From IMG/VR virus record IMGVR_UViG_3300032038_000043, positions 1-64,000 of that record: DNA of 64,000 nucleotides, one strand, 5' to 3'. Shown in pieces: positions 36,701-64,000 of this stretch. Positions within the stretch are counted from its first letter, which is position 1. The number at the start of each line of letters is the position of its first letter. This stretch comes from a virus (Duplodnaviria; Caudoviricetes). The notes beneath the pieces were generated by a model. That model had not been told where the DNA came from and did not search any database. It saw only the letters and a program-made list of their open reading frames with translations. Position numbers and translations under genes: made by a program.

Positions 36701-36789
36701 GGAAGGCACCCGCAGACGGCGTGCGGAACTGTCTTGAAAACAGCAGGTCGCAGAGATGCGGCCCGGGGGTTCGACTCCCTCGCCTTCCG
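36701..36789 (+). tRNA. tRNA-Ser(UGA), atypical D arm
   Basis: Acceptor GGAAGGC/GCCTTCC, loop CTTGAAA, long variable arm, TTCGACT, G73. Confidence 0.85.
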
Positions 36790-36851
36790 CCTCATAGAGC
36801 ATGCTTGCCGACAACGCGCCGCCTGCGGCGCTTCCAACGTGGATAGGCAAC

Positions 36852-62364: not shown

Positions 62365-62405
62365 TACAATCCCCCTTGTGCCCTGTCGTCAGGGCGTCTC
62401 GAAAC

Positions 62406-62458
62406 GGCCCTCTCTCGTGACTTCCTGCCAAAGTCCTCACGAGAGGGGCCTGTTTTTT
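62406..62458 (+). terminator. long hairpin with a plus-strand T tail (antisense to early genes)
   Basis: GGCCCTCTCTCGTGA/TCACGAGAGGGGCC then TGTTTTTT. Confidence 0.55.
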
Positions 62459-62697
62459 CTCTTCTCATCAGTCCCGACCAACTATGTCCGTACGCCACCT
62501 ACCGACGCCCTCGAGCGCCAGCTATGCGCGTCCCTTGGTCAACGTCATCCGTCTCTTCTGTCGGGACCTTCACGCTATTCTTCGCGGCGGGTCGCCCCGC
62601 CTGCCTATACGGCTGCCCTCGGCCACTTCGGTGCCACCTCATGGCGGGCGTTTGTCAAGGAACCTCTATCGGAAATGCCTTTCGGCGGTGAAATGCT

Positions 62698-62774
62698 TGG
62701 TGCGCACGGCAGGATTTGAACCTGCGACCCTCGGTTTAGGAAACCGACGCTCTGTCCTGCTGAGCTACGTGCGC
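62698..62774 (-). tRNA. tRNA-Arg(CCU)
   Basis: GCGCACG/CGTGCGC acceptor, loop TTCCTAA, CCA encoded. Confidence 0.95.
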
Positions 62775-62775
62775 T

Positions 62776-62866
62776 TGGTGGGGGCCCTGGGAGTTGAACC
62801 CAGCTGCAAGTCTCCTCGCACTCTCCGGTTATGAGCCGGGGCCCGTATCCGCTGGGGCAGACCCCC
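62776..62866 (-). tRNA. tRNA with CAU anticodon and long variable arm (Met/Ile2/other)
   Basis: GGGGGTC/GGCCCCC acceptor, loop CTCATAA, variable stem TGCGAG-GAGA-CTTGCA, T arm CTGGG-TTCAACT-CCCAG, ACCA end; 91 nt. Confidence 0.88.
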
Positions 62867-62868
62867 GT

Positions 62869-63099
62869 CTACGCACCCTTCGGGTGCCTGTTAACCTCGG
62901 GGAGCGACTCGTACAGCTCCCTCGGGTCGACTCCGAGCGTGTCGGCCAACGTGAACAGCTCGTACGCCGTGAACTGTGTCCTGCCGCTCTTCTTGTTCCA
63001 GAAGGACACGCGGGATATGCCAAGCAGGTCGGCGAAGTACTGGTCGTTCACGCGATACACGGCCTTGTGCACTCGTATTTCGGTTTCAAAATCAATCAC
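62869..63099 (-). CDS. Cro-like HTH regulator
   Basis: FADLLGISRVSFWNKKSGRTQFT..EL..LA; AAGGAG RBS; first gene of the early arm. Confidence 0.85.
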   Translation of the reverse strand: MIDFETEIRVHKAVYRVNDQYFADLLGISRVSFWNKKSGRTQFTAYELFTLADTLGVDPRELYESLPEVNRHPKGA

Positions 63100-63136
63100 T
63101 GACTGCTCTCCTTCGTCACATGAATGATTTTCAGGC

Positions 63137-63173
63137 AAAACGAAAAAAGGCTGTCGTCCTAAGACAACAGCCT
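63137..63173 (-). terminator. intrinsic terminator upstream of the cro-like gene
   Basis: AGGCTGTTGTC-TTAG-GACGACAGCCT-TTTTTCGTTTT on the minus strand. Confidence 0.7.
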
Positions 63174-63386
63174 GTTTTGACCTAAAAACTAGGTGTTAAA
63201 TTGGTTGAATAAGTGTGGTAAAATCGCAGGTAGAGGCAGGTACCGTTCACCGATTAATAATTTAACTACTTGTCTCTTGATGTCAGAGGTGTGAAAGAGA
63301 GTTTTGAGAGGGGGGAGCCGACCTGCATCAAGGATTGAACCATTGGATTGCAGGTTAACTCAGTGGAAAGACGTGAGGGAATAGTC

Positions 63387-63415: not shown

Positions 63416-63491
63416 GGCTGGGTAGCTCAGTTGGTAGAGCAGGGGACTGAAAATCCCTGTGTCGGGGGTTCGACTCCCTCCCCAGCCACCA
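63416..63491 (+). tRNA. tRNA-Phe(GAA); probable att core
   Basis: Canonical 76-nt cloverleaf, loop CTGAAAA, CCA; adjacent to integrase. Confidence 0.96.
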
Positions 63492-63564: not shown

Positions 63565-64000
63565 GTGCAGTTCGACGAATACTGCCAAGAGTGGTGCGAG
63601 AACCTCAAGTCGATGGGCTCCGTGGAGCCGTCGACGGTCGACGACTACCGAAAGTCGCTCGTCGCGTGGCAAGACCTTGCCAAAATCGAGCTCGAGGACG
63701 TGTCGAGACGCCAAATCGAGGCCTCGATGCGCAAGATGCTGGCCGAAGGGCGCATCCCGAGCACCGTTCGCAAGCGTCTGGTCACCATCAGGCACCTCTT
63801 TGACGACGCCGTGGCCTACGGTGACGTCCAAAGCAACCCTTGCGACGGAATCAGGAGCCCGAAGCAGCGGAAGTCGTGCAAAAACTACCTCCCAGTCGAG
63901 GAAAGGGAGCGTCTGAAGGCCAGAATCGCGTCCTCGAACCTCCAAATCACCGTCGCGGCGGCAATCGCGCTCTATTCTGGGCTCCGAGAGGCCGAAATCT
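63565..64000 (+). CDS. int: tyrosine integrase, 3'-truncated by the window (not in ORF track)
   Basis: MQFDEYCQEW...STVDDY...PSTVRKRL...AVAYGDVQSNPC...ALYSGLREAEI (catalytic Arg box). Confidence 0.93.
   Translation, partial: MQFDEYCQEWCENLKSMGSVEPSTVDDYRKSLVAWQDLAKIELEDVSRRQIEASMRKMLAEGRIPSTVRKRLVTIRHLFDDAVAYGDVQSNPCDGIRSPKQRKSCKNYLPVEERERLKARIASSNLQITVAAAIALYSGLREAEI

Follow-up and report, generated by a model that had tools for sequence, protein, structure and literature searches.

A phage tRNA gene with a CAU anticodon and a long variable arm, a candidate remodelled tRNA-Ile2

We analysed the first 64 kb (the window, i.e. the whole stretch of DNA studied here, 64,000 nucleotides) of a 93,018-bp virus record that has direct terminal repeats and is rated complete. 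The minus strand of the window contains a 91-nt gene, called tRNA(cat) by ARAGORN, that combines a CAU anticodon with a long variable arm (Table 1), and we conclude that it is a real tRNA gene, beyond chance. We lean towards reading it as a phage tRNA-Ile2 remodelled on a class II-like body, which would be modified by the host TilS and would read AUA. Long variable arms in bacteria are regarded as diagnostic of Leu, Ser, Tyr and Sec tRNAs, and for some synthetases the arm itself is a recognition element. tRNA-Ile2 itself is already known; what the sequence suggests to be new is an Ile2-type tRNA gene on a class II-like body, and in the literature searched, which included a 2020 review of non-canonical tRNAs, we found no phage or bacterial CAU tRNA described as long-armed.

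In the mechanism that we propose, the tRNA would be co-transcribed with a Cro-like early gene and a tRNA-Arg(CCU) and excised by host tRNA-processing enzymes; host TilS would then turn C34 into lysidine, IleRS would add isoleucine, and the charged tRNA would read AUA. Together, the CAU tRNA and the tRNA-Arg(CCU) may supply the phage with readers of AUA and AGG, two codons that are commoner in the phage than in its probable Atopobiaceae host.

Table 1. Coordinates of the long-armed CAU tRNA gene, its parts and the adjoining features in the window.
Feature	Position	Strand	Evidence or detail
Long-armed CAU tRNA	62776..62866	-	ARAGORN, sequence reading, fold, homologues, covariation
Anticodon CAU	62831-62833	-	part of the long-armed CAU tRNA
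17-nt anticodon arm	62824-62840	-	part of the long-armed CAU tRNA
Extra arm	62804-62823	-	stem 62815-62820 with 62805-62810; loop 62811-62814
Encoded CCA	62776-62778	-	part of the long-armed CAU tRNA
tRNA-Arg(CCU)	62698..62774	-	ARAGORN and Rfam (73 bits); starts 1 nt after the long-armed CAU tRNA
Cro-like helix-turn-helix gene	62869..63138	-	ORF list; PHROG transcriptional repressor or regulator families
Sigma-70-like promoter match (candidate)	63257..63286	-	consensus scan only

The gene has a 7-bp acceptor stem with one U.G pair, a D stem of three Watson-Crick pairs plus C13.C22 with a D loop of 8 nt, an anticodon stem with a C27.A43 mismatch and the loop CUCAUAA, an extra arm of 6 bp capped by GAGA within a 20-nt variable region, and a T arm with a 5-bp stem and a normal T loop; U8, A14, G18 G19, U33, A73 and an encoded CCA are all present. 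These are also the features that the initial annotation (made from the sequence without database searches) had reported, i.e. the length, the CCA, the anticodon loop, the short D stem, the capped variable stem, A73 and the C27-A43 mismatch, and every one of them was seen again with ARAGORN, in the sequence and in the fold. The gene thus has the general attributes of a tRNA (cloverleaf, 7-bp acceptor, 5-bp T stem, T-loop consensus, discriminator and CCA), and it departs from the class I shape (4-5 nt variable loop and 4-bp D stem). Two pairs in its core, G15.G48 and C10-G25, are off the tRNA consensus. According to Rfam, it falls below the gathering score of the general tRNA model (RF00005), and its top match is tRNA-Sec, with 34.4 bits against a cut-off of 47 and several mismatched pairs. 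Its fold energy is unremarkable (z = -1.44; 19 of 200 shuffles fold equally well). We regard the gene as beyond chance because it has the full set of tRNA-specific features, is spaced by 1 nt from a canonical tRNA-Arg, and has homologues in which the extra stem covaries.

Homologues were searched for using a pattern in which a long spacer separates part of the CAU anticodon arm from a T loop. The broad pattern matched more than 117 viral contigs, mostly at ARAGORN tRNA(cat) genes of 80-94 nt, and 108 distinct long-armed CAU tRNAs were parsed, including 79 initiator-like, 24 elongator-like (defined by a fully paired 7-bp acceptor stem that starts with G) and 5 others. When narrowed to the anticodon stem of our tRNA, the pattern matched 12 metagenome contigs and 6 viral contigs. 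In 185,579 species genomes, its matches were two contigs belonging to a single genome, that of an Atopobiaceae MAG obtained from sheep ileum; a stricter pattern (D arm plus anticodon loop) gave no viral match. Four tRNAs, namely ours and those at loci L185, L182 and L181, have in common the C27.A43 mismatch and the layout of the variable region (3 unpaired nt, a stem of 4-6 bp, a tetraloop and 1 nt). The L185 and L182 contigs have ~59% G+C, like the phage, and their tRNAs are 56-64% identical to ours; in L185, a metagenome contig, the CAU tRNA (c418-510) is followed by a tRNA-Arg(CCU) (c340-416) after the same 1-nt gap.

The initial annotation had proposed looking for homologues with covarying variable arms, and such homologues were found. 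In an alignment of seven tRNAs with the same geometry, compensatory changes were observed in 5 of the 6 pairs of the extra stem, with 88% of the cells paired, and for the anticodon, extra-arm and T stems the pairing measures exceed those of all, or nearly all, of the 500 shuffles and break down once the 3' partners are slid. The extra arm is therefore conserved in structure but not in sequence; across the family, GAAA is by far the commonest loop, with GAGA in our tRNA. The long arm is found both on class II-like bodies and on those whose D arm is of class I type. In protein content, the carriers have essentially nothing in common with this phage (we found one weak match), and because of this, judging from the sequences, the tRNA design recurs across unrelated phages and is not inherited with the phage backbone. 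We found no near relatives of the tRNA in GenBank phages, in which only the tRNA-Arg was matched, and no GenBank phage relatives for 25 kb of this genome; IMG/VR relatives identified via the Erf-like protein have identities of at most 50% and no long-armed CAU tRNA nearby.

The window has a G+C content of ~60%. Its plus strand encodes structural genes (large terminase, portal and major head protein), and a minus-strand early block contains Erf-like, RusA-like, DnaC/DnaD-like and thymidylate synthase genes. The stop codon of the Cro-like gene lies 2 nt upstream of the CAU tRNA, and the true start of that gene is likely to be a GTG near 63099, behind a ribosome-binding site. A consensus scan found a sole promoter-like match upstream of the block formed by the Cro-like gene and the two tRNAs (Table 1). 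The initial annotation had placed the tRNA at the head of the early transcript; its position just past the Cro-like stop codon keeps this plausible, but a strong two-way terminator-like hairpin (63148-63173) separates the promoter-like site from the Cro-like gene. We note that the minus-strand segment 63148-63286 could, within the lysis-lysogeny switch region, form a leader of ~100 nt, encode a small RNA or act as an attenuator. In the ~330 nt 3' of the tRNA-Arg (62365-62697), we saw no convincing minus-strand ORF, and a 15-bp hairpin at 62407-62449 has a T run on the plus strand only.

For the whole genome, ARAGORN predicts seven tRNAs: Ser(GCU), Ser(UGA), Arg(CCU), the long-armed CAU tRNA, Phe(GAA), Trp(CCA) and a second CAU tRNA. 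The tRNA-Ser(UGA) (36701-36791, plus strand; an ARAGORN call) is also below the Rfam gathering score, and its A8 and 4-bp D stem are unlike the neighbouring Ser(GCU). The second CAU tRNA (contig positions 65746-65821, plus strand), 1.7 kb past the end of the window, is derived from an initiator, as its A11-U24/G12-C23 D stem and C3-G70 indicate. It is altered, with C1.C72, C33 for U33, the 31-39 pair flipped to C-G and an extra U in the D stem, and may represent a form of the initiator with changes near the anticodon loop. Since this second CAU tRNA is initiator-derived, an initiator-type role is already taken in the phage. The long-armed tRNA is not itself of the initiator type: it has G1-C72, C11-G24, C12-G23 and C29-G41, in place of a 1-72 mismatch, A11-U24/G12-C23 and three G-C pairs at 29-31/39-41.

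A full-length tRNA-Phe (63416-63491, plus strand) adjoins a tyrosine-integrase gene (63565-64000, plus strand); this tRNA gene is likely to serve as the attachment site and to point to the host. Compared with the tRNA-Phe of the Atopobiaceae MAG, it shows one difference, a compensatory pair in the T stem. The host family is thus probably Atopobiaceae, and the phage a probable temperate phage of gut actinobacteria. On the strength of the near-identical tRNA-Phe, we took the Atopobiaceae MAG and further genomes of the family as host proxies, and all host comparisons below refer to them.

The initial annotation had left open whether the gene is a remodelled Ile2 or a remodelled Met tRNA. This option turned out to be the best supported of those it offered, and specifically in its Ile2 form, given that the anticodon arm, G3-C70 and A38 match Ile2. 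Silva et al. 2006 (PMC1635315), who classified the CAU tRNAs in 234 bacterial genomes, report that G3, A3, C70 or T70 point to tRNA-Ile(CAU) and rule out Met and fMet, and that C4-G69 and C5-G68 are frequent in Ile2. In Atopobiaceae, the native Ile2 has G3-C70, C4-G69, C5-G68 and A38, the native elongator Met has C3-G70 and C38, and the native initiator has C3-G70. Our tRNA has G3-C70 and A38, as does the host-family Ile2, so that the elongator Met markers C3-G70 and the host-family C38 are both replaced. Where the host Ile2 has C4-G69 and C5-G68 in the acceptor stem, our tRNA has G4-C69 and G5-C68.

The 17-nt anticodon arm, including C27.A43, is found unchanged in more than 117 further viral contigs, on short-armed tRNAs. 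Among at least 47 distinct short-armed tRNAs with this arm, 40 of 47 lack C3-G70, A73 is present in 47 of 47, and the Ile2 signature is frequent (C4-G69 in 30 of 47 and C5-G68 in 35 of 47). GenBank labels the matching short-armed tRNAs as 'tRNA-Met', but these labels are uninformative because they are assigned by the anticodon only. A similar picture was seen for the long-armed CAU tRNAs: 21 of the 24 elongator-like ones lack C3-G70, while C3-G70 is found in 60 of the remaining 84, which are mostly initiator-like. The long-armed CAU tRNA of the Atopobiaceae MAG has G3-C70, C4-G69 and C5-G68, as the host Ile2 does. The three architecturally closest homologues (L185, L182 and L186) have C3-G70, which is uninformative, and start with G1 C2 C3 like native Met tRNAs. 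Determinants of the E. coli IleRS include A73, C29-G41, A35, U36, A37, A38, C4-G69, U12-A23 and G16 (PMC9976931); our tRNA has the first six of these and lacks C4-G69, U12-A23 and G16. C29-G41 is weak evidence for Ile2, because the native Met tRNA of the host family has it too.

Reading AUA would depend on a TilS supplied by the host. No TilS gene was found in this phage, among 12 further carrier records or across 2.56 Mb of viral flanking sequence, and in the GenBank phages that do have TilS (PA5oct and a gut phage clone) the CAU tRNAs are short-armed or there are none nearby. The TilS of the host family is the long form with a TilS_C domain, and in the TilS enzymes studied this domain binds the acceptor stem. 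Modification by the host TilS is therefore uncertain for a tRNA with G4-C69 and G5-C68 in its acceptor. As for charging, the variable region faces the solvent in class I synthetase-tRNA complexes, and on this basis we assume that IleRS would tolerate the extra arm.

The main rival, which we consider unlikely, is an elongator Met tRNA, in which C34 would stay unmodified, MetRS would charge the tRNA via CAU, and AUG would be read. CAU is by far the strongest MetRS determinant, to the point that a Val tRNA given CAU is charged like the native tRNA-Met, and unmodified E. coli tRNA-Ile2 accepts Met (PMC9976931). Because of these two observations, MetRS would probably charge our tRNA if it had no lysidine. 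The Met reading also agrees with the presence of A73 and G2-C71, with an acceptor stem that is without the C4-G69 and C5-G68 of the host Ile2, with a host TilS that has a TilS_C domain, with the G1 C2 C3 start that L185 and L182 share with the native Atopobiaceae Met tRNA, and with the lack of TilS in the phage. It is at odds with G3-C70, a reported complete negative discriminator for Met and fMet that splits Ile2 from Met in the host family, with A38, which is found in Ile2 where the host Met has C38, and with an anticodon arm that equals that of Ile2-type phage tRNAs. ATG, moreover, is not enriched in the phage.

Codon use was counted with a crude GC3-based ORF picker, and two samples of host-family DNA served as host proxies. 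Counted in this way, ATA makes up 0.19 of the Ile codons in the phage vs 0.149 and 0.085 in the host-family samples, and AGG 0.305 of the Arg codons vs 0.152 and 0.123; this contrast between phage and host is modest. The frequency of ATG is the same in the phage and the host-family samples, and TCA and TGG, the codons of two other phage tRNAs, are also enriched in the phage. In the 8-kb flank of the long-armed CAU tRNA of the MAG, ATA accounts for 0.36 of the Ile codons. The terminase gene contains 4 ATA codons, and conserved genes hold few; within the phage, ATA peaks in the tail genes, at 9.3 per 1000. Two other carriers are informative: in a complete 50.6-kb phage of 62% G+C, one such long-armed CAU tRNA and a Ser(GGA) are the only tRNAs, and in a 97%-complete phage of 42% G+C, the long-armed CAU tRNA is found among tRNAs that mostly read A-ending codons. 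Codon use and these tRNA sets fit an AUA reader better than an additional AUG reader. We also observed that AGG reaches 28 per 1000 codons in the early genes (38000-63200, minus strand), where the Arg(CCU) tRNA sits, and TCA 11.4 per 1000 in the late genes, next to both Ser tRNAs; each of these tRNAs is therefore located within the block of genes where its codon is most used.

Codon use also bears on a different possibility, that the product is a non-translational tRNA-like RNA, such as a Ro60/Y-RNA partner or, as the initial annotation had also suggested, a decoy, in this case for defence nucleases or toxins that target tRNAs. The Rfam score below the tRNA gathering threshold and the unusual core pairs (G15.G48, C10-G25 and C13.C22) are what such an RNA might show. 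We judge it quite improbable, as the anticodon loop is a perfect 7-nt loop, A73, CCA and intact acceptor and T arms are kept, the anticodon arm is identical base by base across unrelated carriers, and codon use fits a role in decoding.

The initial annotation had also raised a Leu-charged tRNA that recodes AUG or AUA. In its more general form, LeuRS, SerRS or TyrRS would charge the tRNA through its long arm and A73, and the wrong residue would be inserted at AUG or AUA. There are precedents in nev-tRNAs (PMC3333845) and allo-tRNAs (PMC5389517), and apart from the long arm and A73, the D-arm layout of our tRNA is that of the host-family tRNA-Tyr (3-bp stem, C13.C22 and equal D-loop length). We therefore compared arm geometries, i.e. 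the numbers of unpaired nucleotides 5' and 3' of the extra stem, with those of the class II tRNAs of the host-family MAG. The geometry is 1/2 in the five Leu genes, which share a D loop with A15 and three nucleotides before G18 G19, 1/1 in Ser, which has G73, and 1/3 in Tyr, which needs its own anticodon. Our tRNA has a 3/1 geometry, with G15 and two nucleotides before G18 G19. It thus resembles tRNA-Leu in A73 but not in D loop or arm geometry, it differs from tRNA-Ser in having A73 and three unpaired nucleotides 5' of the arm, and it matches tRNA-Tyr in A73 and D-arm layout but not in anticodon or arm geometry. The Leu-charged option is disfavoured by the comparison with the five Leu tRNAs. 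We regard a recoding or mistranslating tRNA of any of these three identities as very improbable, considering also that the same anticodon arm and long arm occur on class I D-arm bodies, so that a Leu, Ser or Tyr body is not a prerequisite for the arm, and that broad missense at AUG would damage the phage's own proteins.

A decaying, functionless pseudogene is least credible: our tRNA is the most deviant of its subgroup, with G15.G48 where homologues pair G15-C48 or A15-U48, and has a low Rfam score, but its five helices are intact with mismatches only at C13.C22 (also seen in the host-family tRNA-Tyr) and the family-conserved C27.A43, the phage genome in the record is complete, with terminal repeats, and CCA and the 1-nt gap to tRNA-Arg are kept as in L185.

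Among known systems, the closest to the remodelled tRNA-Ile2 that we favour is the tRNA-Ile2(CAU)/TilS pair (E. coli ileX and ileY, and the tRNA-Ile of T4-like phages, PMC1524935). Our tRNA is like these in having CAU, CUCAUAA, A73, C29-G41 and a 3-70 pair other than C3:G70, and further in that a rare-codon Arg tRNA is its partner and ATA is enriched in its carrier. It is unlike them in its 20-nt variable region with a 6-bp hairpin (5 nt in Ile2), in its class II-type 3-bp D stem, and in lacking C4-G69, C5-G68 and U12-A23; its lysidine and its charging with Ile are putative. The nematode nev-tRNAs (PMC3333845) are class II tRNAs with Gly or Ile anticodons that are charged with Leu. They share with our tRNA a long variable arm on an anticodon foreign to Leu, Ser and Tyr, but are eukaryotic, LeuRS-charged and built on Leu-tRNA bodies, whereas the D loop and arm geometry of our tRNA are not those of Leu and the remainder is Ile2-like.

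The allo-tRNAs (Mukai et al., PMC5389517) have 8/4 or 9/3 acceptor/T branches, a long D stem with a tetraloop, mostly G73 or U73, and Ser identity. Taken together, tRNA-Sec and allo-tRNAs are marked by an acceptor/T branch of 13 bp (8/5) or 12 bp (8/4, 9/3), a 6-bp D stem with a tetraloop, and G73 or U73. Like our tRNA, allo-tRNAs and tRNA-Sec-like tRNAs carry a long arm and non-standard anticodons and occur in bacteria and phages, and the best Rfam match of our tRNA is to tRNA-Sec, below the cut-off as given above. Our tRNA belongs with neither: it has a 7/5 structure, a 3-bp D stem, an 8-nt D loop and A73. Finally, phage tRNAs have been proposed to escape tRNA-targeting defences through changes in the anticodon loop (PMC10264068). 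Our tRNA likewise is a phage tRNA that differs from its host counterpart, and such an escape could give the remodelling a rationale; unlike in that proposal, its anticodon loop is canonical, the change consists of an added arm and a rebuilt D arm, and a role in resistance is hypothetical.

The extra arm is best described as a hairpin that appears to be selected and structurally conserved, with a geometry unlike that of the host Leu, Ser and Tyr tRNAs. The initial annotation had offered evasion of host anticodon nucleases as a possible reason for the remodelling. Our leading guess for the job of the arm is that it protects the tRNA from, or marks it against, host or phage enzymes that target tRNAs. 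Another guess is that the arm avoids cross-recognition while stabilising a weakened core. More broadly, long arms may be a convergent adaptation of phage tRNAs that leaves charging normal and shields them from host defences directed at tRNAs, or from enzymes with which the phage itself depletes tRNAs, an idea that we put forward only tentatively. If this shielding reading were true, the textbook rule on long-armed bacterial tRNAs would fail for tRNAs imported by phages.

If the gene encodes a working Ile2-type tRNA, TilS and IleRS would have to tolerate a long arm, phages would seem to reshape tRNA bodies under some selection, and annotation pipelines may miss or mislabel such genes (Rfam misses this one and ARAGORN says Met). 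That the arm geometry matches no host class II tRNA hints at selection against cross-charging; this geometry could also offer a natural scaffold for orthogonal tRNA design. One temperate phage, with a long-armed tRNA beside a normal one, would also make a cheap system for studying the function of the arm.

Long variable arms are found on many isotypes in phage tRNA arrays, e.g. in 19 of 60 Asn and 7 of 26 Cys tRNAs, and further on Thr, His, Lys, Glu, Trp, Ile, Arg and Pro tRNAs (viral loci L001-L125 and L178-L192, e.g. L187 902-986 and L016 2559-2641), which suggests repeated gain under selection. Several of the long-armed isotypes have a class II-like scaffold in common, in which the D stem is 3 bp, the D loop is long, and a 4-nt tail follows a short hairpin. 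GAU is absent from the extra-arm loops of the CAU tRNAs examined. It is present in those of three long-armed tRNA-Ile(UAU) genes at viral loci (one at L179 2735-2830), which are 91-96 nt long; two of the three have a loop of 7 nt.
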